Positions 9,054-56,943 of a DNA stretch of 64,000 bases are shown one piece after another (position 1 is the first letter of the stretch; the number at the start of each line of letters is the position of its first letter). Source of the DNA: Octopus sinensis (taxonomy: Eukaryota); assembly GCF_006345805.1 (NCBI RefSeq), contig NW_021833290.1, positions 12,763-76,762 of the forward strand, in the 5' to 3' direction. A program made the translations under genes and the position numbers. The notes under the pieces are model-generated. The model did no database searches. It was given only the letters and a program-made list of their open reading frames with translations, and was not told the DNA's origin.

Positions 9054-9196
9054 CATCATCAATGCCTTTGCTCTGTTCTGCACTGTAACATTGAGACATG
9101 TCTGGTTCTTGCCAGATACCAGTAAACGGTGAACACTTTTGTGATGACAGGTTTTGACTTGATGCCATTTCTGGATGCCCCATCGTTCTGGAAGAA
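9054..9196 (-). CDS. Exon, second half of HRM domain (C-SSRTMGHPEMASSQNLSSQKCSPFTGIWQEPDMSQCYSAEQSKGIDD), phase 2-1
   Basis: ttttttcag acceptor and gtgagc donor; 143 nt open; W.EPD..C motif; phase matches 10609-10723. Confidence 0.88.
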
Positions 9197-9984
9197 CTGA
9201 AAAAATAAATGTTAAATATTGTCAGTCGAGTTTATTCATTCTGAGGAGAATTTCATCAATCTCAGAGGAATATAAGAAACCTTCGAACTGGTCGTGATTT
9301 GAACTCATAATTTAGTGAAAGAAGGATAAATGGTGTCTTGCATTTGGGGGAGAAATCTATTATTTACTCCTGACCCCTATCCTCAAAACTAATGTCAAAT
9401 ATTTTCTAACTAGAGTTCAGATATAAAAACAATATTCCTGCATCTGTTTTTATTTACAATAATTTCTTGTTTTTATGATTATTCAATACAAGATTAGTTG
9501 GAACGGTGTAGGTGATGCAGCATTAAGGAGCCAAGTTGTTAGTTCAAGTTGAATGGGGGAATTAGTTGCTAATATTTCGCCACCATAGACATCAGTAGCA
9601 ACAGCGGCAGCAATGGATTTATGTATATTTTCCTACATATGCACAGATTTGAGTGATTCCACCAGTTGGTCTTGTCTTAAAACTAATAAAGCTCAGCCTC
9701 TGGGAGGATCAAGTTAGATGCTTAACCTGTGGAATGACGTGGTAGAAATGAGAGAAGAGAGACCGTATTACATAGTCTGTAATGAGTGAAATCCCAGGAT
9801 GACCATCATGTACTAGCAAGATATATAGCTCTACAGTAATCATAAAATTGAATAAATAGTATTAGCCTGAATCCAACAGAATCACTGATAGATTCTATTG
9901 GCTGTATCTAGGTATGTGCTTTCTTTGCTACAATTATTTTGTGAAATTCTGGAACTTACAAGAATCTTTAAATCTTTGAATAAT

Positions 9985-10370
9985 GCTGATTTCAAATTTT
10001 GCCACAGGGTCAGATATTTTGGGTGGGGATAGTTCGATAACATAGACCCCAGCTTACTTATTTTATCGATCCCGAAAGGGTAAAAGATAAAGTTTACCCT
10101 GGTAGCATTTGATCTCAGAATGTAAAGTCAGAGGAAATGCTGCTAAGCATTTTGTCCGGCATGGAAACGATTCCGCCAGGTCAGCACCATAAAGCCTTGT
10201 CTAATATTGGTTTCAAATTTTGGCACAAGGCCAGCAATTTCAGGGGAAGGGATAAGTCGTTTACACCAAACCCAGTGCTCAATTGGTATTTATTTCATCG
10301 AATCGAAAAAATTAAAGGCAAAGTCGACCTTGGCGGAATTTGAACTCAGAACATAAAAACGAATGAAATG
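9985..10370 (-). mobile_element. Two tandem family-2 SINE copies
   Basis: Two tttcaaattttg(g/c)caca..gaactcagaa units in head-to-tail order. Confidence 0.75.
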
Positions 10371-10608
10371 AAAGCTTTGTATAATATTGGCGACAAAGCA
10401 AACGTAGATAGTTAGGACAAGGCTAAATTATATCAAATAATGTATAAAATGTAAAAATGCTGGGACAAGAGATTGCAACCGATAGACGTTTAATTCTATC
10501 TTGTTAATCTATAAAGCTGTTATTTGCTCTACCAAGTAACATTCTCTCACAATAGGATGGCGCTGAAAACTTCAAACTTTGAGTAGAAATAAATCAATAC
10601 AAACGAAC

Positions 10609-10723
10609 CAATGCCTGGTGGCTACATTTCTATGACATGGGATCTCAGCAGTAGTTCCTATTTTTGTCATTGGCCAAGAGAAAGCTCGATTGTTAGTTGA
10701 TGTTGTGCTTTCATCACAAACCA
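10609..10723 (-). CDS. Exon, first half of hormone-receptor (HRM) domain (VCDESTTSTNNRAFSWPMTKIGTTAEIPCHRNVATRHC), phase 1-2
   Basis: ctttttcag acceptor and gttcgt donor; C..WPxTxxGxxAxxPC..ATRxC is the HRM signature of adhesion/secretin GPCRs. Confidence 0.88.
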
Positions 10724-12126
10724 CTGAAAAAGAAGCAAAATATGGACATGAAAGAAGCCAGTAGTAGTAGTAGTTGTAGTAGTAGTAGTAGTAGTAGCAG
10801 CAGCAGCAGTTAATGTTGGAAATAAATTGTTTGGACCACCTGCTGGCTGATATGAGGACAATTATACACGAAGTGTTGCAAACATACACGGAGAGCATAT
10901 ATATTTATTCAAAATAGACAGATTTCTAGTTTTTCATTTAGTAGTTTGTAAAGAGATAAATGATTTAGAAATGAATTACAATCCCTTACAACACAAGGAC
11001 CCAACCAGGCTCCATGCAATTCTTGGAAGTGTAGTCTATTCTTAACTAAAATGGCGACAATATGATTTTCTCCATATTCTTGCTCTGTTAAAATATTTGA
11101 GAAAAATTACATTAAAGTGTCCTACTTATTAAAATTCTAATTCATTATTTATGCAGCTGAAGATGGCATTGCATTTAAATTGATGTAATTTTTGTATTGT
11201 TCAATTAAATTTAGCCGATTGAAACTGCATAACTACTTGATATCCTGTAGATTATATATATATATATTCTTATATATATTTTTTCTTATATATTCTTAAA
11301 AAACAATAAATAAAATAAATAGAGGTGTGTGCATATGTATATATATATATTTTATATTTTTTCGAGCATATATAACTGGTTACGGGATATGACTACTCAG
11401 AATGCTAGTCTGTTTCGCGGCCTCTAGTGTTGAATTTCGTCAATATATTGATCACTCTTTAGACATACTGACCGGAAGCGCAAAACCTAATGTACGCTAG
11501 AAATGGGTAGATGTTATATTGATTTGGCGATGGTAAAATGAAATGAATGGAAACGAAGTGAAAATATATCCTTTTTCGGCAATGGGATATGATTTGTTCC
11601 TCTCTTATATCTCTTAGACATTGTTTAAAGCGTATGAGCTGTGTGTGTATCTATCGTTTCTTATTCAAAAATTAATATGATCACTTCAAACAAAATGAAA
11701 TTCCGCCGAGGAAAAATATTTGCAGCATTGAATAATTTTCCTGAGTGAATTAAAGAAAGTACTGGAATTGTTTGAATTATTCTGCCCAGTAGAGTCTGCA
11801 TCTTCTACTTCTATACAAAATTAGAAGAAAACATTTTTGCCCTCGGTTAATTGGTATAATTAAAAAGAAACTGAGCAAAGACAAACAGTTCCGTAGGGAC
11901 AAGAAACGGAAAAGCGCAAAATAAAATGCTTTTTTTTAAAATTATCCAAGCTTTGAGAAAATGTAAATAAATAGTTGTGTGTGAGAGAGAGAGAGAGGGA
12001 GAGAGTCTGTGTGCTTGGTATCATCTACTGTGGTTGATGATGACGACAACGACGAAGAGGTTGGTGATTGATGAAGCTAATTATGACGGTAATGATGATT
12101 AAATTAATAAGAAACACGATACTTAC

Positions 12127-12281
12127 TTTCATCAATGAATTTCATGTGGCTTTTCTTAACTCCTAAGTTAAGCAATTCCTGGGAATTGTTCAAAACTTGG
12201 GAGATATTGCGCCGCAGTTGACTTTCAGTCATTTCGCTAAATACTGTACAGTAAATAGCAAATATTTTATTTCTGTTTGAG
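12127..12281 (-). CDS. Exon, SEA-like region (SNRNKIFAIYCTVFSEMTESQLRRNISQVLNNSQELLNLGVKKSHMKFIDE), phase 2-1
   Basis: tttatttcag acceptor and gtaagt donor; 155 nt open; phases match both neighbours. The SEA assignment is tentative. Confidence 0.85.
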
Positions 12282-12384
12282 CTGAAATAAAAAATAAATA
12301 CATACATGTATGTCGGTATGTATGTATGTATGTAGCTAGCTAGCTAGCTAGAAATATAATACATACTATATAGATATATATATA

Positions 12385-12431
<47 letters not shown>

Positions 12432-12432
12432 A

Positions 12433-12477
<45 letters not shown>

Positions 12478-12488
<11 letters not shown>

Positions 12489-13050
12489 ATTCGAGACAAA
12501 ACCACTATTTTAAAACCAAACAAGGAAAGACTTAATCAATACATAAAATTTTAATATAAATTAAATAAACCGCCACTACAAATGTTTCATGTCTGCTCCG
12601 ACAATCTTCAGGTGGATTTTCGATCTAAAAATAGCAATATTTTAAAATATAATTTAAAATAATTTAAATTAATAAAACAATAAAATTATCAATGAAAGAA
12701 TGTAAAAAAATAAAAATATAATCTATATATAATCTATATATAATCTATATATAATCAATATATAATCTAAAATAATCTAAAATAAACCCTATAAACAATT
12801 GAATATAAAAACCTATTATAAAAGTTCTCATATTTAAAAATGTACAAAAACCAAAACCACAGACATGAAACATTTGTAGTGGCGGTTTATTTAATTTATA
12901 TTAAAATTTTATGTATTGATTAAGTCTTTCCTTGTTTGGTTTTAAAATAGTGGTTTTGTCTCGAATTATATTATATAATATTTTACTATAAATTGGATTT
13001 AACCCTAAATCTGATTTTTCCCTATTTTGGATTCATTCCCTAATATTATT
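12478..13050. mobile_element. Penelope-like terminal repeat in an inverted arrangement (arms ~12478-12595 and 12860-12977), with a hammerhead motif at 12573-12615 (-)
   Basis: The arms are reverse complements; same family as 4045-4200; CCAC-CTGAAGA-t-TGTC(ggagca)GACA-t-GAAA-CATTTG-TA-GTGG. Confidence 0.7.
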
Positions 13051-13576
13051 ATATATATATATATATAATATACATTCGTTTAAAAGCTGCCCTGTTAATC
13101 TTGGGGTCCAACAATGACACCATGCATTGAGTACATATTAAGTTTCATGAAACATGAATATTTCTCAAGCAATGAACAATTTTCATCAAAGCAATGATAT
13201 AATTTGTCGACTCGGAACTTATTGCAAAGCTTCATGATAAACAACAGTACCACCACCATCGCCACCATATCTGCCATACACACGCCATCCAGACTTCTGA
13301 CGCCATCACCATCAATACTTTTCATCACTTCCCCCTCCACAACCATCACCACTGTCTTTCACATCGCTTTCTATCACTATATTCAAATATAGCTCAGGAT
13401 TGGATTATCATAGCTAAAATAACCGCATTCAATATGGTTGAGAACAGAATTAGTTAAGAAGGCTCGAACTACAAGCGGGTGACTAAAAGTTGTCTTAAGA
13501 ATATATTCGTCCACTAAGAAATCCACATGAAGGCCTTCACTCCCTGCATAAATCTTTAAATACACTTTATATATAT

Positions 13577-13637
<61 letters not shown>

Positions 13638-14409
13638 ATTACCTGGTTGGTTTTAAATTGCGTGTTAGCCACCTTCAATATTTTATAATCTTCACATTGC
13701 CATTTTGTGAAATCAGTCCCTAATTCCTATGGCATTCTCAATGATACTGAGAGGCGTGAGTTAGCCTCCACCAGCCGTAATGGAGTGAGCATTGCTGATG
13801 AGTATTAACTTCCTATAAGAGATTACCATGCTAATCTAATCCATCTGGCTTACCGTGGGGAATGTTCTCCCCACTGTCAATGCAAACAGACCATATGTCT
13901 TTTTGTGGCTAAGGAGTCTATGACTAATATTTTCTAATAATGCTGGTGCTCACTGCACTCTTTTCACACTTAGTGACTGTGAATTATTCCTTGTTGGTTT
14001 CAAATTGCCGGTAGCCACCACAATTTATATATATACACACCCATATATATGTGTGTATATATATGTGTGTATATATATTGTGTGATGTTATGTATGTATA
14101 TATATATACATATATATATATACAGCAATTTAATAAATAAAACATATGCATACATACATACATATATGTACATACCTACATCTATACGTATATATACATA
14201 TATATATGAGTACAGGACACTACAAAAAAGCGTAGAACACAACGAAAAACATGAAATCAAACAAGGAAACGGACTCTTTTCAACAACGAAAAAACAGAGT
14301 ACAAGACAAACAATACAAGGAACATTCCCCTTCTTCAGCTGCTCCTGTTTCGACTCAATGCGTATATGTATATATATGTATATATATATATATAAATATA
14401 TATATATAT

Positions 14410-14470
<61 letters not shown>

Positions 14471-14494
14471 GTATGTATGTATATGTATATATGC

Positions 14495-14569
<75 letters not shown>

Positions 14570-14716
14570 CAGTCTCTGTATCTTTATATGGGTTTGTTTG
14601 TCCTTTGTATAATAAAACATTGATAAAACTTAAACATTTCATTGAATGTATGAATTAGTATATTGTGGGTCACAAGTACAACACTGTTGATTATTGTGAC
14701 GTATAATACATGCGAT

Positions 14717-15689
14717 GATGCCGCTCTGGTAACACACACAGAAGAAGCCCTCCAAAGGCTCATTAACTGTTTTGAGCAAGCATGTAACGACTTTGGCTTA
14801 GCTATCAGCCTTAAGAAGACCAACATCATGGGTCAGGCTACATCGGACAAGAGGTGGAGAAGTTTACCTATCTGGGCTCTACCGTCACCTACAACCTATC
14901 CCTTGACGCTGAGCTCAATATACGCATTGGCATTGCAAGGCAGCTGCGCGATGGCCCAACTCTCCAACGGACTTGGGACAACAATAAGCTGACCAAGACC
15001 ACAAAATAAGATCTACCAGGCATGTGTACTCAGCACTCTACTGTATGGAAGCGAGACCTGCGCTATACACACGCCAAGAGCGTCGCCTAAACATCTTTCA
15101 CCTGCGCTGCCTCCGAAAAATCCTCCACATCAAATGGCAGAATCATATCCCCAACAAAGATGTCCTCAGGCAAGCAGGAATACACAAGCATGTTTGCACT
15201 CCTCACACAAAACGTATGAGATGGCTTGGGCTGTTAGCCGTATGAAAGATGGCAGAATCCCCAAGGACATACTCTAACGGAGAGCTTGCTAGCGGTACCA
15301 GGTCTGTGGGTAGCCGATCTTACGTTACAAGGATGTTTGCAAAAGGGACATGAAGGCCTGCAACATCAACATTAGCGGTTGGGATGCAGTCGCCGGCAAC
15401 CGTGGAGAATGGCGTCGTACAGTAAAGAGTATACAGAGGAGTGACAGAAGAGAGAGGAGAAATGGAAAGAAAGGAAGAGACATGAACAAGAGACCATGGC
15501 ACTACAACCAGCCAGGAACAGTCTTCGCTACATTTGCAGTACCTGCCAGAGGGAGTGTTTGTCCAGATAGGACTACACAGCCACAGCAAGAAATGTAACA
15601 GGAAATAAAATATAACAGCCGGACTAGACCTAGAAAAAAAAAAAAAATGCGCAACTCCATTGTCTCCCGAGACAGAAAGGATGCCAAAC
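14717..15689 (+). mobile_element. 5'-truncated RTE LINE with 12-bp TSD
   Basis: Starts at DDAALVTHTEEALQRL and includes FHLRCLRKILHIKWQ and RMRWLG. AATACATGCGAT flanks it at 14705-14716 and 15690-15701; the empty site is at ~3180-3191. Confidence 0.95.
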
Positions 15690-15765
15690 AATACATGCGA
15701 TAAAATCGAATGTTTGGAACAAAAGCAAATAAATTTGAATAAATGTGCTAGAAGCATTTGCTTAC

Positions 15766-15818
15766 CCACAGTCTTCAACTCTAAATGTTCCCGTCACGGT
15801 TGAAAGGTCATGCTCCAT
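15766..15818 (-). CDS. Exon, SEA-like region (MEHDLSTVTGTFRVEDCG), phase 0-2
   Basis: cttttgcag acceptor and gtaag donor; 53 nt. Confidence 0.82.
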
Positions 15819-15983
15819 CTGCAAAAGCCGGATGTATATATATATAAATATATTATATATAATATATATATATATATATTATATATATAATATATATATA
15901 TATATATAATATACATACATTAATGAAAGAAACTGAGTTTGATTTAAAAGTCGTTGAGATGTATTGAAAAATAGATAAAGAAT

Positions 15984-16290
15984 ATTTTATTCTGAAACGC
16001 AGGATAATGCTAATGATATAACGTGAACCGGATGAAATATCCATAATTTGCAGAAAAATCTGTCGGCGGCCAGCTATGTGACTACACCTCACACCCCTGT
16101 GATTACGCTTTAAGTGCTTTACCATTAAGCTAAACTGCGCGAACGACAAATACTTCTGCAAAGTTAGGCTATATACATCTAGCTTTATAAGACGCGTAAT
16201 CTGGCCGCCGACAGAGTTTTCGGCAACAGGTGAATACTTTATCCTGTTCATGCTATACTATTAGCATCATCCTGCGTTTGAGAATATAAT
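15984..16290. mobile_element. MITE-like foldback element with ~90-bp imperfect terminal inverted repeats
   Basis: tattctgaaacgcaggataatgctaat...tctgtcggcggccag pairs with ctggccgccgacaga...attagcatcatcctgcgtttgagaata; absent from the paralogous block near 3410. Confidence 0.8.
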
Positions 16291-16807
16291 TATATATAAA
16301 TATATTAGCTTGACACTCGGTAAAGTGGGGGAAATGAGAGGGTTTTTAATGTTCCGAGCATATCTCTTTTTCAGAAAGGAAAACGAAAATGTTGAGAAGA
16401 AAAATATTACCAAAAGGAAGTGTGTGTGTGTGTAAACATAAGATTAGTGATATTTTTGAGTAGGATTTTATTTACTGTCAGAATCGGAAATTATATCACG
16501 GAATATATTAAGACAAAATAGTGGATAGAACAGTCTTTTTATTGACCAGCAAAAATTCAGTAAGTTAAAAAAGAAAGTTTTATGTAATAGTTTACTATCA
16601 GTAAATGGAGTTGAATGTCTGAATTTCATGAAACCTCACTATTTATTTGACGTTTCACATTTCTTCTATAAAATATGCATGTGTGTGTGTGTATGTGTGC
16701 GTGAGAGTGTGTATTTGTATGCATGTTGCGCATGTTCAGTGCATATGTGTGCGCGCATGTGCGTCTGTGTACGGAGAAAGAGAGAGAGAGGGCAGATATC
16801 TACTCAC

Positions 16808-16889
16808 GGCTCTTGATATGTTCTCAGCGGGGATTTTATATTCGTTGAACTTTTTAAAATCAAACGAAATACGAGGGATTTGGTCCAGC
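16808..16889 (-). CDS. Exon, SEA-like region (G-WTKSLVFRLIL../FNEYKIPAENISRA); 82 nt, 1 nt shorter than its paralog, so frameshifted as assembled
   Basis: Same acceptor and donor as 3648-3730; 1-nt loss around the AAAAA run. Confidence 0.75.
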
Positions 16890-17302
16890 CTATGGATTGA
16901 TATAGAAAATAATCTCTGCTTTTATAAATGAGACACACGTCATAGATGCACATAAAACCCACATACGTAGATAAAAATATACATTTATAATCACATATAC
17001 ACTTAAAATACTATATATATATATATATTATTCTTATTCTACCTATTATATACGTTTTTTATTATTATTATTATTATTTGCAATTTACTTAAGCATTGAC
17101 ATTTAATTATTATTTATTTTTTATATTTCTATTATATGTAATTTTCTAGATGGTGTAATTTAATTGTTCATTTTGAATTGATAAAAAGTGTTTTTTTTTA
17201 TTTTATTTTTTATATACAATCTTATAATGTGTGAAATTTGATTTAGTATTTCTAATTTAATTTTTCCCTTGTAAGTTTGGATTTTATTCACTCAAATAAT
17301 AT

Positions 17303-17380
<78 letters not shown>

Positions 17381-17389
17381 TTATCATTC

Positions 17390-17660
17390 TTCCCTTCTTC
17401 CTGTCGCTCTCTTCGTGTATCGGCTATCAATGCCTGCACGTGGATGATTGGTTCCATACATCGTTAGGACCTTTCTTGACTTCCTGTCCAACTCCTTTAG
17501 CTTCTCCTCCGTCCACTTCAGTTTTCCAGCATCATTCCGAACTACTGCTACTGACTGCGTGCGAGTTTATCGCCGAAATTATGTTCCAGGCATTCAGCTT
17601 TCTAACCAATTTTTGCTCACTCGCCAAAAGTGCTCTCTTTTACTCTTTTCCTTCATGTCG
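17390..17660 (-). mobile_element. R4/Dong fragment, paralog of 7840-8040
   Basis: Shares ccatacatcgttaggacctttcttgacttcctgtcc and the downstream flank. Confidence 0.7.
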
Positions 17661-17878
17661 TGGTGTTTATTTCCATCTGTGAGTGTGTGTGTGTGTTAGA
17701 GAGAGAGAGGGGGGGAGAGGGAGAGAGGGAGAGAGAGCATTGCAAACAGTATATATATACACACACACGTATACACATCAAAATATTTTCCCGTATATTA
17801 ATTACTATAAATATTCTTATTAACTATCAATTTGTAATAAACTTGTTAGTGTTTATTTAGACAATAAATAACACTTAC

Positions 17879-18061
17879 CAATGAAATCATTCTGTTACAC
17901 AAGTGTCCGACGCAACAACCAGTACAAGACGTGCCATTCGTCCGTTTATTGCATGTAAGGGTATTGTTTCTCATAGCTTCAACACATTTTCTGTATGTGC
18001 TGCAGGACCTTTCAGTCTTCAGTTTAGCACCGTTCATTGATATTGCGAATCGGCATACAGG
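17879..18061 (-). CDS. Exon, C-terminal part of Ly6/uPAR (three-finger)-like domain (PVCRFAISMNGAKLKTERSCSTYRKCVEAMRNNTLTCNKRTNGTSCTGCCVGHLCN...)
   Basis: attattacag acceptor and gtaagt donor; CCxxxxCN terminal motif. It ends in phase 0 while the next exon type needs phase 1, suggesting a 1-nt loss after CN. Confidence 0.85.
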
Positions 18062-20022
18062 CTGTAATAATAGATATGAAAATTATACACTACAACAACA
18101 ATATTTATTAGGACGATTACTGCTAATTACAGCAACAACAACAGAAACAACACCACTGGGGATGTTTACCATGCAAGTAAGTTTAATCATTGCTTTAAAA
18201 TACCCAAAAGCAATAAATGAAACCGTAAAAGAGTTGCCGAATTGTTGAAAGTTAACAGCATAAGTAAAATTCCGTAAAAGTTATTGCTATTTAGTATTCA
18301 AAAATCATGTTTTAAATGCTTACAGTGTCCAAACCTCTCGGATCACAAGGAGATATGGCCATCGGATCACGGTCTGTATCAAAACCGCATCGCACTGTCA
18401 CCCATTGCCCAACTTAAAATAGGTTAAATTATCCTAATAAAGATGTATCAATTCTCTAAAATTTCTTCTTACTGGAGGAATGCTCAAGAGGAATTTTTCA
18501 TATAAAATTTACGGAAAATCATGCGTACAAAACTCACCAACAAGAGAAACTAATATGCCTTTACCCAAAGATGAAAATGAAATATAATTGTCAGATTGAA
18601 CTCCTCAGTCCAAGCAAATAAAACAGAAAATACATAAAACGAACACAAGAGAAACTTCGTTTTATTTTGCAAGTATATTTTATATGAAAATACGGTATAT
18701 TAGTATAAAATTTGGAGAGAAAACAACCAAGGTCTTGTTAACTTAATAAGGGACATTCTGAAAACGAAAAATATCAGAAATGGAGAAGAATATTTAAGAA
18801 AAGAATCCATCACGAAAACGCAATTAATAATCGCAAACACCTAACAATAATAAAAGCAATGAAAATGTAGACATTGAAGTTAGAAATAAGATTTGCATTG
18901 CCTTAGTTTGAAATTGAAACTTGTTTCTTCCAATGTTGGAAAAGTTTTAGAAAGAAAATTGGATCTCCCAAACTGAGTGAGGATGTCATGAAAAAATAAC
19001 CAATGATAGTGTCCGAAGGCTGGCGTCTTCAAAAGAGCCAATGGAGTCGGTGATTGCAAATGAATGAATCATTACATAAGCTAACTCAGCTTCAAGAAAA
19101 CAGAAAGGTCTGAGATCAGAACAGACAATGAAACAGGCAACAGATTGCAGCCATGCTCTTATGTCACGCTCTATTCTCCTATATTCTCGTAATGTGAAGC
19201 ATTGATCTGTGACATTACCGGTGTCTTTTATTGTTTCTCTTGTGTTTCTTTCACCAATGTACAACTGTGTATTCAGAGATATGCCTGACAATTTTAATTT
19301 GTGTTTTAGCTGCGTTTTAAAGTTATAGGTTTTACCTTTCTGTGAAACAATATGACCCCCACCTATTATGTTCTGGAGAGCTTATTGTACTACTTGATGT
19401 GAGGGAAGATTTAATCTGTTTCGAATATTTCATAACCTCGTATATCAAACAACCTCTTTTGCTATGGCCAGCAGATGAAGGAAAAGTCTCATTTGCTTCT
19501 TAACTTATTCAATCCGCTCCCTGTAATGTTTGCGAACTGGTAGGGCCAGGTTCGACTTCCAGTTACCCCTCTAAGGTTGGTGACCCGAGGTCATTCGACA
19601 AGGAACCTTGATTCCAAGTTGACTTATAGCCACATACATTCATGCATCCTACTCTAAGGACAGCCATGTTTGTCGGAGAAAGGTCACTCTAAGTTCGTGT
19701 GTTCGTTTCTTGAATAGGTATTCCTGGACAGGGTAGAACGTTGCGTCCTTGAACAAGGCACTTCATTTCACTTTGTCCCAGTCTAATCAAGTGAAATGTG
19801 TCCCAACCTAGTGATGTTCATCTATTTCTTCTCTTCAATCGTCACATCCTTCTCGTCCCATTGAGTCATGAATAAGAAGATCGACAGGGTGTGTGTATGT
19901 CTACGCAGGCGCATAAAAAAAACTAGCGAAAGCATAGTACAATCTATGTGGCCTTAATGGCTTTCGAGTGACGGTTGTGGATATATTTTAACGAAAAGGA
20001 AGAAAGTAATATTCCAGTTTAC

Positions 20023-20112
20023 CTCTGTTCCTGGACAGCTTGTCACTTCATTCATTGCATTTAATTCCTGAACATGTTTGACACTGTAAATTCCGTTGAA
20101 ATAACGAGTAAT
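20023..20112 (-). CDS. Exon, N-terminal part of Ly6/uPAR-like domain (YSLFQRNLQCQTCSGIKCNE / EVTSCPGTE); frameshift gives TGA at 20048-20050
   Basis: attctgtag acceptor and gtaaac donor; LxCxxC start. The phase-1 start matches the LRRCT exon and the phase-0 end matches the next exon only if an indel is assumed. Confidence 0.78.
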
Positions 20113-20681: not shown

Positions 20682-20710
<29 letters not shown>

Positions 20711-20713
<3 letters not shown>

Positions 20714-24792: not shown

Positions 24793-24950
24793 TTTGACAT
24801 TGCGAATAATCCAGTATAGGTATTCGTTTCCCTGAGCCTTCCTGACACGTGCCAGAGACAGCAACAGTTCTGTTATAGACTTTTTTAATATACTTAACGA
24901 AGGCTGGCAAGTGACATCCACACTTCATAAGGTTATTGTTTTCGAGGTAA
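24793..24950 (-). CDS. Exon, last LRR strand + LRRCT cap (YLENNNLMKCGCHLPAFVKYIKKVYNRTVAVSGTCQEGSGKRIPILDYSQCQ), phase 2-1
   Basis: attattacag acceptor and gtaagt donor; 158 nt open; CxC...C...C cap pattern. Confidence 0.9.
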
Positions 24951-27360: not shown

Positions 27361-28544
27361 TAACACAGAAGAATGGAGATATCATACACATTGAATCAGA
27401 TTGGCAAATCACAAAATCTTGCGATACAGTAATACTGCGTATTAATCGGCCCTTTAGTTACAGGGTGTTCTCTTTTCATGTTCTGAGTTCAAAATTTGGA
27501 GGACGATTTTGCCTTTCATCTTTTTGGGGTCGATGAATTAAGTACCAGCCGAGCACTAGGGTGGATGTAATCGACAAGCCCCCAGCCACAAAATTGCAGG
27601 CCTTGTGCTTATCGTAGAAAGAATATTTTAGCCCCTTGATTACCAAATTACCAAATGGCTTCGTGGTAGAAAAACAGAGGCAAATACAGCAATCATCAGA
27701 AATATTTGAATGGAATTTTTGTGGTTCTTATTCCTTCTGATAACTCCGTTGTCATAAGGATATAATAAGTAATAACAATATATATATATGTGTGTGTGTG
27801 TGTATGCTTATATATGCACATACGCATACACACACAGGAAAATTTATATATGTGTGCATGAAGGTTTGTATGTAGGCCACTCTCTCGACTCCAGTTAATT
27901 ATGAGTATTTATAAACATGGGGTAAACTAGATCAAACCAACCTTCTGATATTTGAACATAATCTTTTCGATAATAAAACACAGTGCTCGGAAATCATGTT
28001 GATCCACTGAAATTTAAATCAACTCATTGTTGTTTATTACCAACAACATTTAACGAGGAATTGAGAATTTTATGACCTCATTTTTATTTTTTTCATTTTC
28101 CTATAACCCAAAAAACTGTTTTGCTTACATTTTAACTATGCTGGGAAGAATAAGAAGCGCCATCTTCATATTTTTCTATTGGGTTGCTGTTCAAATATCT
28201 GAAAAAGAGACAAATATTACACACTTTAAAATAAGTAAAATTAAATAAATCTGTTTACTCTTGTTCATTTCTAAATTGCTTTTTAGTCAACACTAACAGG
28301 GTAAATGCTGATATTACACACTACAATTGTTTATTCCTCTTTATATTTCTATGGGAAGTGTTGTTTGAACAAGAATAGGTTCCTTCAATCTAACTTAATT
28401 ATCCTAACAGAAAACCTGATAACAAAACAGCAAAAGATGGAAGGGAATAAAATACAAAAATAAAAAAAAATAACAAGGAGACTTTCTTATGTGCACAATA
28501 TGGGTTTTAGTCAACATTCTCATCTATGGTAGAAATATCTTCCT

Positions 28545-32273: not shown

Positions 32274-32345
32274 AATTCCTCTAAGCTGTGAAGGCCTTGA
32301 AACATCTCCTTTTCAATCCTTGAAATTTTATTGTTGCCAAGGTTT
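32274..32345 (-). CDS. LRR exon type A: NLGNNKISRIEKEMFQGLHSLEEL
   Basis: 72 nt; cttcag acceptor, gtaagt donor; phase 2-2. Confidence 0.92.
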
Positions 32346-35267: not shown

Positions 35268-35339
35268 AATTCTGTTAAATTGCAAAGCCCCGTGAATACA
35301 CCTTCTTTGATGGTTGCAATGTTGTTGGAACCAATATTT
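35268..35339 (-). CDS. LRR exon type B: NIGSNNIATIKEGVFTGLCNLTEL
   Basis: 72 nt; ctatag acceptor, gtaagt donor; phase 2-2. Confidence 0.92.
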
Positions 35340-36580: not shown

Positions 36581-36652
36581 AATATCTCTAAGTTGTGAAG
36601 GCCTTGAAACATCTCTTTTTCAATCCTTGAAATTTTATTGAAGGAAAGAGAT
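36581..36652 (-). CDS. LRR exon type A: SLSFNKISRIEKEMFQGLHNLEIL
   Basis: 72 nt; canonical splice sites; phase 2-2. Confidence 0.92.
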
Positions 36653-37683: not shown

Positions 37684-37755
37684 AATTTCTCTAAGTTGTG
37701 AAGGCCTTGAAACATCTCTTTTTCAATCCTTGAAATCTTATTGTTGCGAAGACCT
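37684..37755 (-). CDS. LRR exon type A with weakened donor: GLRNNKISRIEKEMFQGLHNLEKL
   Basis: 72 nt open; a 4-nt deletion turns donor gtaagtt into gttctt. Confidence 0.75.
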
Positions 37756-40394: not shown

Positions 40395-40466
40395 AATGTC
40401 TTTAAATTCGAAAGGCCCGTGAATAAACCTTCTTTGATGGTTGAAATGTTGTTCCATCTCAGATCT
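40395..40466 (-). CDS. LRR exon type B: DLRWNNISTIKEGLFTGLSNLKTL
   Basis: 72 nt; canonical splice sites; phase 2-2. Confidence 0.92.
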
Positions 40467-41630: not shown

Positions 41631-41702
41631 AATTTCTCTAAGTTGTGAAGGCCTTGAAACATCTCCTTTTCAATCCTTGAAATTTTATTGCTGTCAAGAG
41701 AT
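41631..41702 (-). CDS. LRR exon type A: SLDSNKISRIEKEMFQGLHNLEKL
   Basis: 72 nt; canonical splice sites; phase 2-2. Confidence 0.92.
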
Positions 41703-42524: not shown

Positions 42525-42555
<31 letters not shown>

Positions 42556-43686: not shown

Positions 43687-43758
43687 AATTCTTTTAAATT
43701 TGAAAGCCCCGTGAATGTACCTTCTTTGATGGTTGAAATGTTGTTCTCGTACAGATCT
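43687..43758 (-). CDS. LRR exon type B: DLYENNISTIKEGTFTGLSNLKEL
   Basis: 72 nt; canonical splice sites; phase 2-2. Confidence 0.92.
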
Positions 43759-45035: not shown

Positions 45036-45107
45036 AATTCCTCTAAGCTGTGAAGGCCTTGAAACATCTCCTTTTCAATCCTTGAAATTTTATTGTAGGA
45101 AAGATCT
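45036..45107 (-). CDS. LRR exon type A: DLSYNKISRIEKEMFQGLHSLEEL
   Basis: 72 nt; canonical splice sites; phase 2-2. Confidence 0.92.
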
Positions 45108-46760: not shown

Positions 46761-46832
46761 ACTGTTTTTAAATTGGAAAGCCCCGTGAATACACCTTCTT
46801 TGATGGTTGAAATGTTGTTCCCGAAAAGATAT
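46761..46832 (-). CDS. LRR exon type B: YLFGNNISTIKEGVFTGLSNLKTV
   Basis: 72 nt; canonical splice sites; phase 2-2. Confidence 0.9.
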
Positions 46833-48850
46833 CTATAGCAGTAAAGAAAGAGTAAAATAGATTATATGGAAAATATTTGTGATACGACATCAAACACTGT
46901 GACATCTGAATGAAAGGAAGAAAAAGAAGAAAGATAACGAAGAAGAAAAGGAAGAAGAAGGAGGAGGAGGAGGCGAAGAGGAAGAAAAGTAGAAGAAGAA
47001 GAATTAGTAGAAGAAGAAAGGAGAAGAGGTAGTAGAAGAAAAAGAAGCGAAAGAAGGAATACCTGGAAAAAGGAGGAGGAGGATGATAAAAGGGAAGAAG
47101 AAGTAGAAGAAAAAGTAAAAGAAGAAGAAGAAGGGGATGGGAGGAAAAGAATAACAAGAAGAAGAAGATAAATATAAGAAAGACGAGAGGAGGAGGAGGA
47201 GAAGTAGGTGAAGAAGTAGAAATAAGAAGAAGAAGAAGGAGAAGAAGAACAACAACAAGTCGAAATAGAAGGAGGATGAGGAGGGGGAGGGGAAGAAGAA
47301 ATATTGCAAGAAGAAGGAAGGAAAGAACAGGAAGAAGAAGATGTAGAAGTAGTAGAAGCAAGAAAAAGAAGAAAGATAACGAAGAAGAAAAGGAAGAAGA
47401 AGGAGGAGGAGGAGGCGAAGAGGAAGAAAAGTAGAAGAAGAAGAATTAGTAGAAGAAGAAAGGAGAAGAGGTAGTAGAAGAAAAAGAAGCGAAAGAAGGA
47501 ATACCTGGAAAAAGGAGGAGGAGGATGATAAAAGGGAAGAAGTAGAAGAAAAAGTAAAAGAAGAAGAAGAAGGGGATGGGAGGAAAAGAATAACAAGAAG
47601 AAGAAGATAAATATAAGAAAGACGAGGAGGAGGAGGAGGAGAAGTAGATGAAGAAGTAGAAATAAGAAGAAGAAGAAGGAGAAGAAGAACAACAACAAGT
47701 CGAAATAGAAGGAGGATGAGGAGGGGGAGGGGAAGAAGAAATATTGCAAGAAGAAGAAGGAAGGAAAGAACAGGAAGAAGAAGATGTAGAAGTAGTAGAA
47801 GCAAGAAAAAGAAGAAGATGAAGGAGGTGGAGGAGAAGGAGATAGAGAATAACAAAAACAGAAGTGAAGAAGAAGAAGGAGGAGGAGGAGGAGTAGAAGA
47901 AGAAGTAGAAAGAAGAAGAGGAAGAAAAAAAGAAAAAGACAAAGAAGAAGAAGAAGGAAGGGGAGGAAAAAGGAGGAGGAGGAGTGTGAAGGAGGAGAAT
48001 AAGTAGGAGAACATGAAAAAGAAGAAGAAGATGAAGGAGGAGGAGGTTGAGAATAACAAAAAGAAGAATATAAGAAGAAGAAAGAGGAGTAGGAGGAGAA
48101 GTAGATGAAGAAGTAGAAAGTAGTGGTAGAAGAAGACATAGAAGAAGAAGAAAAAAGAAGTAGAAGAATGAGAAGAAGAAATGAAAAAGAAGAAGGAAGG
48201 AACAGAAGAAGAAGAATTAGAAGAAGAAGCAGAAGAAGAAGAAAATGAAGCAGGAGAGGAGGGGAGGAGGAGAATAACAAGAAGAAAAAGGAGGAGGCGC
48301 GGAGAGGATTGGGTAGAAAAAAAGAAGAGGAAAAAAGAAGTAGAAGAAGGAAGGGGAAAAAGGAGGAGGAAGAAGATGAAAGGGAAAAAGTAGGGGTAGA
48401 AGAAAAAGAAGAAGAAGAAGAACAAGGAGGAGGAGGAGGAGGAGTAGATGAAGAAGTTGAAAGTAGAAGAGGAAGAAGTGGAAGAAGAAGAAAAAAGGAG
48501 AAGCGAGAGAAGAAGAAGGTTAAGAAGAAGTAGTAGAGAGAGAAGAAGAAGAAGAAAAAGAAGAAGAAGAAGGAGGAGAAGAAGGTGCAGCAGGAGGAGA
48601 GGAACAGAAGGAAGAAGAAGAAAAAGAAGAAGAAGAAGAAGAAGAAGAAGAAGAAAAAAGGAGAAGCGAGAGAAGAAGAAGAAGGAGGAGGAGGAGGAGA
48701 AGTAGATGAAGAAGAAGAAAAAGAAGAAGAAGAAGAAGGAAAAGAAGAAGAAAACGAAGGAAAAGAAGAAGAAGGCAGAATACGAAATGACAAAAAGATG
48801 AAGAAGAAGGCGGAGAAGGAGAAATAGAATAAGAAAAAGAACAAAAAGAA

Positions 48851-48882
<32 letters not shown>

Positions 48883-50094
48883 AAAATATAAAGCGGGAGA
48901 AGAAGAAGAAGAAGAACAACAACAACAACAACAACAACAAAAAGAAGAAAAAGAGGAAGAAGAAGAAGAAGAAGTGGAAAAAGAAAAAGATAAAGAGGGA
49001 GAAGAAGAAGAACAACAACAAAAAGAAGAAGAAGAAGAAGAAGAAGAAGAAGAAAAGATAAAGAGGGAGAAGAAGAAGAAGAAGAAAAAGAAGAAGAAAA
49101 AGAAGAAGAAGAAGAAGAAGAAGAAGATGACAATTTAAAAATGATGGTGTTCATGATGAAACTGAAAATGTTCTCATAATATCAGGAAATAATTCAAGGA
49201 TAGAGCGATAAATTTTGGGCGAGAAGACATGGCTGAAAAATCAGGGAATATACGGAATCAGAAATCAACATATTCAAATGCACTCATACGCAATCTTATA
49301 TTCATAGTATCAACGACGGAATGCGGTATGCACACTTACATCACACATATTCCCACTCACCTTTGTGGAAACATGGTGAGAGAGATTATTTATTTCATAT
49401 CGCTTCATTGTCACAAGAATATTAGAAAACACACGCTTACAAGAAATATATCAGCAGTTTAATTTATCAGGCCAAATATTCCAGCTTACAAGTACAGTAA
49501 GTATTTCAGGTTTACAGATAGAATGTATGTGACTATATTATTCGAATATATATTTTCCGCTTCCACTTCAGTTACATAAATAACGTGAAGTGAATGACAA
49601 AATTCGAAGTTGAATGATAATATCGAAACACGAAGGAGAATATTGAAATAAGAAATGGAGGAGGATGTAAAATATAAAATAAAGGAATAATATAGTCACA
49701 TTTCACACAGAACTACACTTATATATGAACATACACATATACTTCAGGTAAAAATATTTGATGCAAACATGTAAACTCACAAACGTTACCATTTCTAATA
49801 CAAATTCATATCAAAATCATTGAAATTTGGGAACAAAAATGAGTTATTGAGATGCGAATTGAAACAAAGCAACTACAATAAAGGAACATTATATTTTTCC
49901 TATTATTTCACTTTCTCTCTTAAATTCTCTCTCTTTTTTCACATTGTCTCGCTCTCTCCTATTCTCTTTGTATCTTCCTAAATCGTATTCATTTTACAAA
50001 TTTGAATTGATTTTGTTCGGTGTAGTCTGAAATATTATACATTTGTGACCTTATATATCAGCATCAATAATATCAAGAAACTGAACGAACTTAA

Positions 50095-50166
50095 AATTCT
50101 TTTAAATGTGAAAGCCCCGTGAATGCTCCTTCTTTGATGGTTGCAATGTTGTTGTTCCACAGTTCT
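50095..50166 (-). pseudogene. LRR exon type B with destroyed donor (GT>TT): ELWNNNIATIKEGAFTGLSHLKEL
   Basis: 72 nt open frame; the plus strand reads aacttaa instead of aacttac at 50088-50094. Confidence 0.75.
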
Positions 50167-51006
50167 CTATAGCAGTAAAGAAAGAGTAAATTAGATTATA
50201 TGGAAAAAATATGTGATACGACATCAAACACAGTGACATCTGAATGAAAGGAAGAAAAAGAAGAAAGATAACGAAGAAGAAGAAGAAGAAGAAGAAGAAG
50301 GGGAAGAAGAAGAAGAAGAAGGAGAAGAACAAGAAGAAGAAGAAGAAGAAGAAGAAGAGGAAGTAAAAGAAGACGAAGACAAAGAAAAGGAAGAAGAAGA
50401 AGAAGAAGAGGAAATAGAAGAAGACGACAAAGAAGACGGAACATGAAGGAGATGAAGAAGGAAAGAAGAAGAGGAAGTATAAAAAGAAGAAAAAGAAGAA
50501 GAGAAAGAAGAAATTGAAGAAAAAGGAGGATGAGTAGGACGAAGAGGGGAGGTTGAGGAGGAGAATTGCAATAAGAAGAAGAAAATTAGGAGAAGGAGGT
50601 GGACGAGGAGGGGGAATAGGAGAATTACAAGAAGAAGAACAAAAACAACAACAACAACAACAAAAATATTATCTCGGTGGAAGTGTGGATAAATAACCAC
50701 ACGGAACCTCAGAATCAACAGAACAATGTGTAAGAAAATAGTAGCTAAAACTTATATTAATAGTGCAGATACAGACATACATATGAACATACACATATAT
50801 ATTTTCAGGAATAACATTTTTATGCAGACAATTATCAACTGACAGTCATTGACATTTCAGACTCAATCAAATAAATATAAGACGAATATGAGAACTGAAT
50901 ATGATTTACAGTAATAGAGAGTGAGAAAACATGGAAATAAGGGGATATTAAATTTAAAGACATAGTATATTCCTCATGTATAAACGACAACATTGAAAGA
51001 ACTTAC

Positions 51007-51078
51007 AATTTCTCTAAGCTGTGAAGGCCTTGAAACATCTCTTTTTCAATCCTTGAAATTTTATTGTAGCCAAGATCT
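51007..51078 (-). CDS. LRR exon type A: DLGYNKISRIEKEMFQGLHSLEKL
   Basis: 72 nt; canonical splice sites; phase 2-2. Confidence 0.92.
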
Positions 51079-52808
51079 CTGAAGCAGGAAACAATATTGG
51101 TTAGATTAACATAGTGTGAATTGCGATAACATATTCAATATTGTTCTTTATGGAAGGAGACAAAATTATAGGAAAATATACAGAAGAAGAGGAACGAAAG
51201 AGATTAAGGAGAAGAAGAAGAAGAAGAAGAAGAAGAAGAAGAAGAAGAAGAAAGAGAGGAGGGGAGGGAAAAGAAGAAGTCAAGGAGGAAGAGAAGGGGG
51301 GAGAAGAAGTAGAAGAAGGAGGAGTTGGAGGAGGAGGGGAGGTGAAGAAGGATGAGGACAGGGAAGGAAAGGAGATGCAGGAGGGGGAGGAAGGGAGGAA
51401 AATAGGAGGAGGTGCAGAGGATAGAGTATAAGAAGATATAGAAGATTAAAAAGTGGAGGAAGAATAAGATGAAGTAGAAGGGAGAAGAAAGGGGAGGAGG
51501 AGAAGAAGAGAAGAGGAAGAAGAGAGGAGAAGAAGAAGAAGGAGAGAAGAGAAAGAAGAAGTAAAAGGAGAAGAAGAGCGGAAGAAAATGAAGAAGAAGA
51601 AGAAGCATGAAAAAAGAAGAGAGAAAAAGAAAAAGAAGGAGAAGAAGGAAGAAGAGGAAAATAGGTGGAGGCGGAGGAGTAGGAGGAAGCGGAAGGAGAA
51701 GAAGAGGACAAAGGAGAAGGAGGAGGAAGAGAAGTAGGAGAAGAAGAAGAAGAAGAAGAAGAAGAAGAAGAAGAAGAAGAAGAAGAAGAAGAAGAAAAGA
51801 AGAAGAAAAGAAGATGACACTTTGAATATCATGGTGTTGAAGACGAAACTGAAATTGTTCTTAAAATATCAGGAAATAATTCAAGGATAGATCGATAAAT
51901 TTTGGGCGAGAAGACATGGCTGAAAAATCAGGGAATATACGGAATCAGAAATCAACATATTCAAATGCACTCATACGCATTCTGATATTCATAGTATCAA
52001 CGACGGAATGCGGTATGAACACTCACATCACACATATTCCCAATCACACTTGTGGAAATATGGTGAGAGAGATTATTTATTTCATATCGCTTCATTGTCA
52101 CAAAAATATTAGAAAACACACGCTTACAAGAAATATATCAGCAGTTTAATTGTATCAGGCCAAATATTCCAGCTTACATGTACAGTAAGTATTTCAGGTT
52201 TACAGATAGAATGTATGTGACTATATTATTCGAATATATATTTCCCGCTTCCAATTCAGTTGCTCTATTACATAAATAACATGAAGTGAATGATAAAATT
52301 CGAAGTTGAATGATAATATCGAAACACGAAGGAGAATATTGAAATAAGAAATGGAGGAGGATGCAAAATATAAATAAAGGAATAATATAGTCACATTTCA
52401 CACAGAACTACACTTATATATGAACATACACATATACTTCAGGTAAAAATATTTGATGCAAACATGTAAACTCACAAACGTTACCATTTCTAATACAAAT
52501 TCATATCAAAATCATTGAAATTTGGGTAACAAAACTGAGTTATTGAGATGCGAATTGAAACAAAGCAACTACAATAAAGGAACATTATATTTTTCCTATT
52601 ATTTCACTTTCTCCCCCAAATTCTCTCTCTTTCTTTCACATTGTCTCGCTCTCTCCTATTCTCTTTGTATCTTCCTAAATCTTGTTCATTCTACAAATTT
52701 GAATTGATTTTGTTTGGTTCAGTCTGAAATTTTATACATTTGTGGGCTTATATATCAGCATCAATTAATACTTTTGGATAATAGTATCAAGAAATTAAAC
52801 GAACTTAC

Positions 52809-52880
52809 ACTTTTTTTTAAATTGGAAAGCCCCGTGAATACACCTTCTTTGATGGTTGAATGTTGTTCTCGGAAAGATAT
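52809..52880 (-). CDS. LRR exon type B with two compensating homopolymer indels (restored: YLSENNISTIKEGVFTGLSNLKKV)
   Basis: 72 nt with canonical splice sites. Relative to 46761-46832 it has -1 near 52860 and +1 in the T run at 52811-52818, giving an in-frame TAA as assembled. Confidence 0.7.
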
Positions 52881-53689
52881 CTATAGCAGTAAAGAAAGAG
52901 TAAAATAGATTATATGGAAAATATTTGTGATACGACATCAAACACTGTGACTTAAGAATGAAGGAAGAAAGAAAAAGAGAAAGAAGATAACGAAGAAGAA
53001 GAAGAAGAAGAAGAGACATGGAAAATGAGGTGTTCAAGATGAAAACCGAAAAAGGATTGAAGAGAGAAGAAGAAGTAGAAGAAGAAGAAGGAGAAGAAGA
53101 AGAAGAAGAAGAAGGAGAAGAAGAAGAGAAGAAGAAGAAGAGAAGAGAAAAGAAACAGAAGAAGAAAAAAAATAAAAAGGCGTAAAGATGAAGATTACAA
53201 GAAAAGAAGAAAAAAGAAGAATACGAAGAAGAAAAAGAAGAAGAAGAAGAGAGACGAAGAATAATAATAAGAAGAATAAGAAGACCAAGAGGAGAAGAAG
53301 AAGAAGAAGAAGAAGAATAGAAGAAGAAGAAAAGAGGAGGAGGAGAGAAGAAGAAGAAGAAGAAGAAGGAAGAAGAAGAAGAAGAAGAAGACGGAGAAGA
53401 AGAGAGAGAAGAAGAAGAGAAGACGAAGAAGAAGAAGAAGAACAAGAGGAAGAAGGCAGAAGATGCAGGAGGAGAAGAATATCTTAATGTGGCAGCAGTT
53501 TCATGTTTATTTCTTACTTGACTTGCACAACCTCGAGTATCCGCTTCGCCTCTCTATGTACCAACACACACATCCACACACATACACGCACATATACGCA
53601 CATACACACATATATGCTCAGAAATATACACACATATGTATATCTACCTCTGGGTGCGAGTATGTGTGCGAACCTCGTCCCGGTAGTGG

Positions 53690-54410
53690 TGTTCTTTTTA
53701 CCTGTCGATATAGTTTATTATCGAATCTAAAGGTGTTGTCTTCTAGTTCCCGGCGTGTGTCTTTGGAAATGTGTTTTGAAGCGTTCGTCCATCCGTCCGC
53801 TATGTTTTTCTACCCAGTGTTTGATTGCTTCCAGGCCCAAAGTGTGATGTATTTGTACAAAGATTAGTCAAATCTTTTAAGTATAGTACGTTCTGGGACA
53901 GTGGGTGGAATGTGTTTGATGAAATCCATATCGTCTCGGGTATAGCTGGGCATTAATGGGCACAACGGTTTGAGGAGTATATCCAAAAGATGGCTCAGTT
54001 GTTGTGTTGGGGCTCAGGGTCCAGCAACTGTTGGTCTCAATTTGATGTCAGTAGGTCTTAGTATTTTTATATGCTGATCCTTGCATTTTGGAGCATTCGC
54101 AGATCTTGGGTGATCCATAGAAATTACTCTCTTTCATTACAGAGCTGCATAAATAATCTTTCTCATTATCTGTGAACGAACGTTGGTATTCATTTATCTG
54201 ACTTTTGGGTGTATTCATTATTACTTTTTCCGGGTGTCTTGGTTCTTCCTTGTAGCAGGATTGGTCTGTTTCCAATATTTTATTTTTATAGTAGTCTTGG
54301 TCCGTGACTGCTTTCACCCTTCCCTAATCGGTTTCTTTTAGGATGATTGAATTGTCATTCTTCAGTTTGTAAGGCTTTCTTTTCTTCTTCAGGAAGGTTC
54401 TGTTCGCTTT
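53690..54410 (-). mobile_element. Penelope-like RT fragment
   Basis: ESNFYGSPKI; LRPTVAGP; LSHLLDILLKPL..SYTRDDMDFI; LEDNTFRFDNKLYRQVK. Confidence 0.8.
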
Positions 54411-56094
54411 ACGGATATTTTATTATATATGATATAAAACGGATTTAAGTCACCACGTAAAGTATGAATGAAAAACACATATGCATGTAAAATATGAGAA
54501 AAGAATGGATGTTCAAAATATTTGTGATTTGAATTAGATTTACAAAGCCTTCGTTGCAACATCAGTTTTCAGTGGAAGATATTTTTATCATCTCAGAAGT
54601 CAGCTTTATTTATAAATATCTTGTTTCTGTCCAATGAGCATTCCATTTGTTATTACACTTTGCTGTCAAAAGTAATTTACCTTTGCAAAAGTAAACTCCT
54701 TTCCTTTGCTTAGTTGATGCATAAAAGTTCTTCACAAAAATAAACCCCCAAAACTTCAAGACTGAAATAATAGACTAGGAAGGAAAACATAACAGAAATA
54801 GAAAGGGATTTATTAATAGAACTGGTGATGGTAGAGTGGGGAAACCCTGATATAATTTTGAGTCATGTGCTACAAAGGAGAACAACCTTACATGGTGATT
54901 TAACTGGCTTAGGGTGTTATTTAAAAAAGGGATGTAATTACATACATTGCCTTAGTTTTTTAGTCTTTGTTTAGCCCTTTGCTCCTTACTCTTGCTGTAT
55001 TAAACCTCAGTTTGTTCCCATTATTAACCACCTATGCTAAATCCTTCATCCCCTAAATAGCATCCCTGTTCATCATTCCTGTAAAGGTTGACCTGCAACA
55101 GCTCAAACGGAATATTAATGATATCTGTCTCACAAGTATTGGAGATCTTGCAGGAGTTAAAAAACTTGTATGATCCTTTCTCCAAAATCGGTAAAATAAA
55201 AAGTGTGGGATTTTAACTCAGATCACAAACAACTGGACAATATACTGCAAGGTGTCATATTCGACGTCCTCATAGTTGCATTTGTTCATTGAACTGTTAT
55301 GGTTCTTTATTGATCTCGGAAATGAATGACCCAAGGTTGACCTTGGCGGGACTTGAAGTCAGATTGCCGAGTGTCAGAACGTGATGTATTCTGCTAGACG
55401 GTCAAATGATTTGTGCCAAACCTCGCTCAAGTTATGAACGATGAAAATATCTAACTTATTAAACAGAACTTCAACTTTACTATTCAACATCTTGAGTTAT
55501 ACGAGATTTAGGAATTCTATTATTGAAACTTTTCTCTTTATTTTACATTAGGATTTCTCATTTTGTCAAAACGTTCCAAATGTTTTGAGAAATAGATCTG
55601 ATCGAATGAATTGATCCACTTTAGTATTAGGATATTTGATTAAAACTGAAAGTTTAAGGTGATTAATGCAATGATGCAAGCCAATTAACTGGAAGTAATC
55701 ACCTGGAAGAGCAATGTGTTGCAACAGAGTATTTGTTATGATTTATGTATCAAATAATTACTCTTTTTTATTCTATTCCATTTCTTGAGACGTTAAATTT
55801 TAATAATTTACTTAAAAATTGCGTAAGATTTCAGGTGAACGGGGATACATCAATCAGCCGAAACTTCAAATAACCTTCCATAATTTTGTAATAAGGTTTA
55901 TTGTGTTCATGATAGGGTAAATTTTTCTGATGACATTCTATCAAAAATAAATTCCTCATAATTTGTTAAAATAACACTATTTTGATTTCTTCACTTAGGT
56001 ATTTTAAGAATTTGGTAATTTAAGCGGATCTCGTCATTATCTGCTGTTTAATCCATCTGTTTCATTTTTAATTATAAAAATAATAATTTCTTCC

Positions 56095-56295
56095 ATAGGA
56101 ACAAACCTGAAATTTTGGGAAAGGGACAAGTCCTTTACATTGATCTCAGAGATTAATTGCTATTTATTTTACTGACTCCAAAAGAATGAAAAACAAAGTC
56201 AACCTCGACAGAATTTAAAATCGAAACGTAAAGACGAACGAAATACCGCTCAACATTTTGTCTGGCGTGCACAACGATTCTGATAGCTCGCTGCA
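56095..56295 (-). mobile_element. Family-2 SINE
   Basis: aaagtcaacctcgacagaattt..aacgtaaagacgaacgaaataccgct..acgattctg. Confidence 0.7.
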
Positions 56296-56752
56296 TATTC
56301 TATTATAAAATTAACACAAACAATAATTAACAATTATTCTGTGACACGATCAACTGATATTATATCATATTACTGTAATAATAAGCAACAATTCAACTAA
56401 TTAATGATATAATATAACTATGTGGAATACACGTTTTCTTAGCACTAAAGTTTTTATACTGTCCGTTCATTGAATATACCGTAAGATTTGATAAGTTCAG
56501 ACAAATGACATCAAAGTCAGATACTAGTCAGATCCAATCACTGTGTATGAGATGTTATATATTATAAATTCAATATGGTAAGAAACAGTTTATTTGACTT
56601 CACAACAGGTAACATATCGATTTGTTTTACTCTAACATAAGATTGTGCTTAAGGCTGTGAGATAAACAGCATAAGCGATTAGCTGAGAACATAATCAATG
56701 AGAATTTAAAATATTGGATGTGGAAAATACGTAGAAAGTGTCAAATACTTAC

Positions 56753-56943
56753 AAATATTCAACATTCGTCGGAATTGGTTGTGGAATTGATAGTAAATTG
56801 CGACGTGCACAATTTATTCTCGTTGTAAGTGAATTGCAAGTACATATCTTGCATATATCTGAATCAGCTTGAGTCTCCAAAAACAATATCGTACACAGTA
56901 TCAACACAAGAGACCGTCTATATGATACTACGTGGTGAAACAT
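56753..56943 (-). CDS. First coding exon: signal peptide + LRRNT (MFHHVVSYRRSLVLILCTILFLETQADSDICKICTCNSLTTRINCARRNLLSIPQPIPTNVEYL), ends phase 2
   Basis: Hydrophobic leader, CxxCxC..INC..L..IP..IP cap, gtaagt donor. An acceptor (cttttacag) at 56964 implies an upstream non-coding exon. Confidence 0.92.

Follow-up and report, generated by a model that had tools for sequence, protein, structure and literature searches.

The question raised by this locus is whether a gene of Octopus sinensis, in which leucine-rich repeats (LRRs) are joined to Ly6/uPAR (LU), SEA-like and HRM domains, encodes an adhesion G-protein-coupled receptor (GPCR). The gene lies on the minus strand of the window, the stretch of 64,000 nucleotides analysed here, which forms the final 64 kb of a 76,762-base contig (NW_021833290.1; G000:C9761:12763-76762) in a 2.7-Gb genome. 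Among known receptors, ADGRG6 has the order SEA-HRM-GAIN and ADGRA the order LRR-Ig-HRM. A preliminary description of the window had proposed a lineage-specific GPCR family with a diversifying binding surface, and pointed to the region left of the window for the GAIN and seven-transmembrane (7TM) exons. We found that the window locus does not encode a GPCR but belongs to a membrane-less branch of an octopus adhesion-GPCR expansion. We read it, with a probability of about one half, as an adhesion-GPCR ectodomain lacking GAIN and 7TM that likely serves as a secreted recognition protein for body surfaces.

The locus is not a GPCR because the gene runs in frame into its last exon without GAIN or 7TM exons. 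A tblastn search with four paralogs covered the 12,762 bases to the left of the window and found no GAIN, GPS or 7TM exon. This region contains the shortened third exon of a second SEA copy (the eroded exon, G000:C9761:5815-5733, minus strand) and, 1.4 kb further on, the last exon of the family (G000:C9761:4329-4277, minus strand); they have AG/GT ends and are predicted to join in frame, so that the last exon directly follows the second SEA where the receptor half had been expected. A control locus searched in the same way (C29, 1.44-1.49 Mb) yielded LRRCT, LU, SEA, HRM, GAIN, GPS and 7TM, followed by a homologous last exon in equal phase. Among at least 71 GPS matches, none lay on the window contig, on scaffold C25 or on C29 below 1.47 Mb. 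Neither a GAIN domain with a GPS motif nor 7tm_2 was found at the window locus, and none of eight membrane-less models tested had a hydrophobic stretch at the C-terminus, two receptors having 7-8. That the window gene is itself a GPCR with GAIN and 7TM exons further downstream would match its paralogs, but is very improbable in view of the stop in the last exon, the distribution of the GPS matches and the next downstream gene on C25, a scaffold 98-99.6% identical to the window contig, where this neighbour lies on the opposite strand.

The short tail is not a one-off misassembly, because it recurs at 25 places and in O. vulgaris gene models. The eroded exon had 43 matches in the genome, of which the 25 near-full-length ones were retained, and in all 25 the last exon follows 1.3-1.55 kb downstream. 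Fifteen of these places are on scaffolds C1, C5, C14, C25 and C29, and 15 have HRM upstream; as a copy count 15 is safer than 25, the unplaced contigs being possibly redundant. The copies are 91-100% alike at the tail. Seven other loci of the short type were mapped exon by exon, and all showed HRM, the second SEA and the last exon, with no GAIN or 7TM. A census with distant clades set aside (29 of 56 HRM matches entered) found HRM followed by the eroded exon in 15 cases, by GPS in 10, by neither in 4 and by both in none. Database models with the short tail are labelled O. sinensis and O. vulgaris. An artefactual gap in place of GAIN and 7TM might be suspected in an unplaced, repeat-rich contig with two near-duplicates, but it is hardly credible when five large scaffolds carry the identical junction at 15 places between them and models derived from a separate assembly, that of O. 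vulgaris, have it too.

The proposal of a GPCR family holds for the paralogs, in which LRR, LU, SEA-like and HRM domains are joined to GAIN, GPS and 7tm_2, and fails for the window locus. Paralogs P0016, P0030 and P0033 carry GPS and 7tm_2 above the Pfam cut-offs after a long ectodomain, and full LRR-LU-SEA-HRM-GAIN-7TM receptors occur among the paralogs. The best solved-structure matches to the GAIN-7TM part of homolog P0075 were ADGRG6, G2 and G4. Full-length homologs are present in Argonauta as well; the search of representatives was crowded by LRR-only matches and covered the breadth outside octopods poorly.

How the short form arose is suggested by its introns. In full receptors the phase-1 donor of HRM exon 2 is followed by GAIN, at the window locus by the second SEA. 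Up to a TA run, the intron before the last exon matches the one that follows SEA, and its 3' end matches the last intron of the receptor. The GAIN-7TM part may have been lost in a deletion that ran from one phase-1 intron to another and ended at the TA run; unequal crossing-over would afterwards have copied and reshuffled LRR exons of 72 nt and exchanged the short tail among paralogs. When the front half common to both forms was placed in a tree (31 rows; two dropped, as they lacked the anchor motif), the membrane-less label had to change no fewer than five times, with the root unsure, and P0029 combines a receptor-type front with the short tail. We infer that tails were swapped between paralogs by recombination, as far as the sequences can tell.

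Some related models differ from both forms. P0016, P0012, P0020 and P0026 are receptor models that skip HRM and pass from SEA directly to GAIN; the usual cleavage residues are absent where GPS is present, and these models nest among membrane-less forms in the front-half tree. Other membrane-less designs were seen among P0036, P0060, P0073 and P0004: two O. bimaculoides models stop after a complete SEA and share a different tail, one O. vulgaris model passes from HRM to a tail resembling the last exon, and one has LRRs and three LU domains. These designs may be independent losses or truncated models.

The suggestion of a diversifying binding surface was borne out by the LRR exons, where variation sits on the concave face and amino-acid changes are in excess. 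Within the window, codons 1, 3 and 4 differ at 0.62 per base in type A (5 exons) and 0.50 in type B (6 exons), as against 0.12 and 0.04 at the remaining LRR codons. We then compared a multi-locus set of 17 distinct type A exons (of 35 found) and 14 distinct type B exons (of 26), after removal of two redundant contigs and 4 out-of-frame exons, with the register set from the LxxLxLxxNxL motif. In these uncorrected and non-independent pairs, the nonsynonymous difference (pN) at concave positions x3, x5, x7 and x8 was 0.44 in type B against an exon-wide synonymous difference (pS) of 0.06, and 0.56 against 0.25 in type A; pN/pS at the other codons was 0.44 (B) and 0.33 (A). Of 8,855 four-codon sets, 1 (B) and 6 (A) scored equally high. 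The result for type B held (pN 0.31, pS 0.06) with the six-codon set of variable lymphocyte receptor (VLR) sites, which we took as a set fixed beforehand.

Variation concentrated at concave LRR residues is a VLR-type feature, and the octopus genes resemble lamprey and hagfish VLRs in having 24-residue LRR cassettes between LRRNT and LRRCT with a variable concave strand. VLRs also exist in a secreted form. Unlike VLR cassettes, those of the octopus are germline exons flanked by introns and spread over many whole genes, which add LU, SEA and HRM domains and derive from a GPCR. No sign of somatic cassette assembly into an incomplete germline gene was found, each cassette being a spliceable exon of a complete germline gene. 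A tentative extension is that octopuses possess a germline VLR-like repertoire derived from an adhesion GPCR, with membrane sensors and secreted binders sharing a reshuffled LRR-cassette front; it is equally tentative that recombination toggles a gene between the two forms and that skipping of cassette exons multiplies the binders released into the mucus of the skin. We know of no large family of variable soluble recognition proteins in cephalopods, and a multi-copy membrane-less adhesion-GPCR branch with selection on its binding face is a concrete candidate for one. It also shows a simple route from a receptor to a secreted binder, and calls for correction of the annotation of such genes, now named 'slit-like' or 'ADGRG6-like'.

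The parent family is already known. In the accessible part of Ritschard et al. 2019 (PMC6408891), group 3 is an octopus-specific adhesion-GPCR expansion with LRRs in 5 of 22 members, tandem clusters and branch-level positive selection, no selected sites being reported. Its genes were collected by a 7TM profile, so that membrane-less members fell outside. Two group 3 accessions, one of them skin-specific, fall in the clusters of homologs P0061 and P0054. These receptors, 'ADGRG6-like' in databases, belong to the family of the window gene by descent only, the latter lacking the receptor half. This LRR-bearing expansion and LU-bearing GPCRs of molluscs and arthropods, reported in 2026 (PMC13719153), are in print; the accessible supplement of PMC6408891 lists LRR and one HRM match (Gene3D), and neither SEA nor uPAR appears in its InterPro sheet. 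In the LU-domain GPCRs of molluscs, arthropods and starfish (PMC13719153, PMC11595613) the LU domain is N-terminal in a 7TM receptor and a legend lists GPS, LRR, LU and 7TM; the available text of these papers mentions neither octopus nor SEA, HRM or a soluble offshoot. Compared with ADGRG6/GPR126 and ADGRA2/3, the octopus family has LRR and LU domains instead of CUB, pentraxin and Ig, and the window gene lacks GAIN or 7TM. No description of a soluble octopus subfamily was found in the literature, and the repeated membrane-less branch is apparently undescribed.

Peptides that match the family have been reported from skin mucus. The accessible O. vulgaris skin-mucus table (PMC10138644) contains a type A LRR peptide (4 spectra) and three LU peptides (4 spectra), of which one is encoded by LU exon 1 of the window and two cross the joint between the LU exons. 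A rough pattern served to sort the models. Of 19 that were membrane-less or short, 1, 5 and 6 contain the respective LU peptides and 13 the LRR peptide; of 30 with GAIN, none contains an LU peptide and 3 contain the LRR peptide. The marker 'adhesion GPCR G6' proposed for octopus welfare in mucus, judging from the accessible part of that report (PMC11431876), may be a soluble form of this kind. If the window gene encodes a secreted recognition protein, each copy would bind its own ligands through the concave face of its LRRs, either in mucus or in fluid, and these ligands would most likely be microbial or other foreign surfaces. The soluble form would be a counterpart of the membrane receptors sharing its front half, with no signalling by itself.

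The same proteins could instead be decoys, or diffusible identity cues, for endogenous rather than microbial ligands of the membrane paralogs in the arm nerve cord, suckers and skin. Axial nerve cord, suckers and skin indeed show high levels of group 3 receptors according to the available data (PMC6408891), the LRR part superposes equally on Nogo receptor, Slit, LRIG1 and VLRs, and the LU fold is nearest to Prod1, Lynx2 and Lypd6b. We nevertheless regard this as rather unlikely, as endogenous ligands would seldom drive such change of a binding face, and as the peptides were detected in skin mucus.

Several points weigh against a secreted recognition protein. The x3/x5/x7/x8 set was picked after the window had been examined, type A was equivocal with the six-codon set (pN 0.39 and pS 0.42 inside the set), and gene conversion could mimic the pattern in such pairs. 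Six tail, SEA and HRM motifs had no match in the accessible mucus table, and receptors outside the model set may have shed their front halves, giving rise to the peptides seen in mucus. A neural role would also fit the distribution of group 3 receptors, which were found mainly in the axial nerve cord, suckers, skin and gills (PMC6408891, as far as accessible). Constraint on the non-LRR exons is weak (pooled pN/pS 0.64, few sites). Finally, the window copy may be truly broken, because four indels are common to the window contig and two others, G000:C10451 and C12785.

These last points touch on the state of the copies. Five window exons have 1-2-base indels, mainly within short base runs. C10451 and C12785, which are redundant assembly or very recent duplicates, are ~99% identical to the window contig over 47-50 kb, and the indels not common to all three differ in a non-nested way. 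The near-identical C25 copy is whole at the indel sites of the window and broken in HRM exon 2. Most of the short copies might be dead, thrown up by an unstable duplicated region, with LRR variation that was selected in full receptors and carried along. The frameshifts of the window copy, those in 5 of 66 non-LRR exon copies elsewhere, the pooled pN/pS, the poorly folding second SEA and the alikeness of the tails agree with this. Such a decay is unlikely, however, as none of the 66 copies has an in-frame stop, the eroded exon is open in 6/6 copies and the last exon in 8/8, full-length models are open in a second species, and the LU peptides in the accessible mucus data match the membrane-less subfamily. 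We consider consensus or assembly error the likelier cause of the window frameshifts, and the copy is probably intact in the animal.

The exons and domains named in the preliminary description were present at their positions on the minus strand. Its Cys-rich region is a Ly6/uPAR domain, as confirmed by fold on a model of paralog P0115 (pLDDT 68.9), which shows a three-finger fold with conserved cysteines and terminal CN. The first 35 rows of the fold search were three-finger folds, with Prod1 as the best (Z 7.7, root-mean-square deviation (rmsd) 2.6, 70 aligned); Foldseek gave Lynx2 (E 0.007), and Pfam only E 0.12. The three-exon alpha/beta region is likely a SEA domain, judging from a predicted secondary structure that fits a ferredoxin-like alpha/beta fold (block pLDDT 63-84) and a PF01390 match under the cut-off (E 0.013) in 1 of 15 proteins, an Argonauta homolog. 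The self-cleavage motif of SEA domains is G-S-V-V-V; it was not found in the window, where G-S is followed by polar residues. The second SEA copy (3730-3256 and the eroded exon), which had been missed, lacks one strand, and its model is of low confidence and folds poorly. The two-exon Cys/Trp region is likely HRM, with sub-threshold PF02793 matches in 10/37 and 6/15 proteins (best E 2e-4) and a model of low confidence. Fold searches with whole models, like the profile search against the PDB, were taken up by LRR matches and uninformative for SEA and HRM. For the LRR part, VLR structures were among the top fold matches (Z 14.4, rmsd 1.9, 115 aligned).

The gene starts with an ATG at 56943, and all its exons are on the minus strand. 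The first coding exon (56753-56943) encodes a signal peptide, judged by eye, and LRRNT, for which protein P0008 gave a sub-threshold Pfam match. It is followed by twelve near-identical 72-nt LRR exons, in phase 2 at both ends. The six of type A are at 52809-52880 (with an internal frame break in the present assembly), 50095-50166 (donor TT at 50166; GT in two sibling contigs), 46761-46832, 43687-43758, 40395-40466 and 35268-35339. The six of type B are at 51007-51078, 45036-45107, 41631-41702, 37684-37755 (donor weak at 37755; normal in one sibling contig), 36581-36652 and 32274-32345. A capping LRR exon of 70 nt (28129-28198; 72 nt in paralogs) brings the LRR exons to 13. Isoforms with different LRR subsets (13, from a sibling contig) were rejected as proof of alternative splicing, several being mid-exon chimeras of the near-identical repeats.

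The last LRR strand and LRRCT (24793-24950) are followed by LU exons 1 (20023-20112, with a frame break) and 2 (17879-18061, 183 nt; 184 nt in 6/6 paralog copies), and by exons a (16808-16889, 82 nt; 83 nt in paralogs), b (15766-15818) and c (12127-12281) of the first SEA-like domain. HRM exons 1 (10609-10723) and 2 (9054-9196) come next, and then exons a (3648-3730) and b (3256-3308) of the second SEA copy. Splice phases chain correctly given five short indels, in the first LRR exon, the capping LRR exon, both LU exons and exon a of the first SEA. If frames are intact and every exon is used, the predicted protein has 793 residues. The window exons match Octopus database proteins at 70-100%, and hence not by chance. 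Database annotation splits the gene into 'slit homolog-like' models and P0224, the C-terminal end of which corresponds to the splice predicted here.

The LRR introns (window 30800-53500) consist of degenerate GAA repeats, with 74% purine on the plus strand, and also hold 600-base blocks that are 93-95% alike; these repeat-built introns are a likely substrate for exon duplication. Other introns contain broken copies of non-LTR retroelements, which we take to be RTE-like, with endonuclease and reverse-transcriptase frames (1-2400, minus strand; 14650-15600, plus strand). Upstream of the gene are transposase-like fragments, presumably mariner-like and hAT-like (60057-60476 and 61585-62665, plus strand). 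A ~530-base unit forms a tandem array at G000:C9761:7176-11484 that turns back as a large inverted repeat and is present in the C25 copy too.

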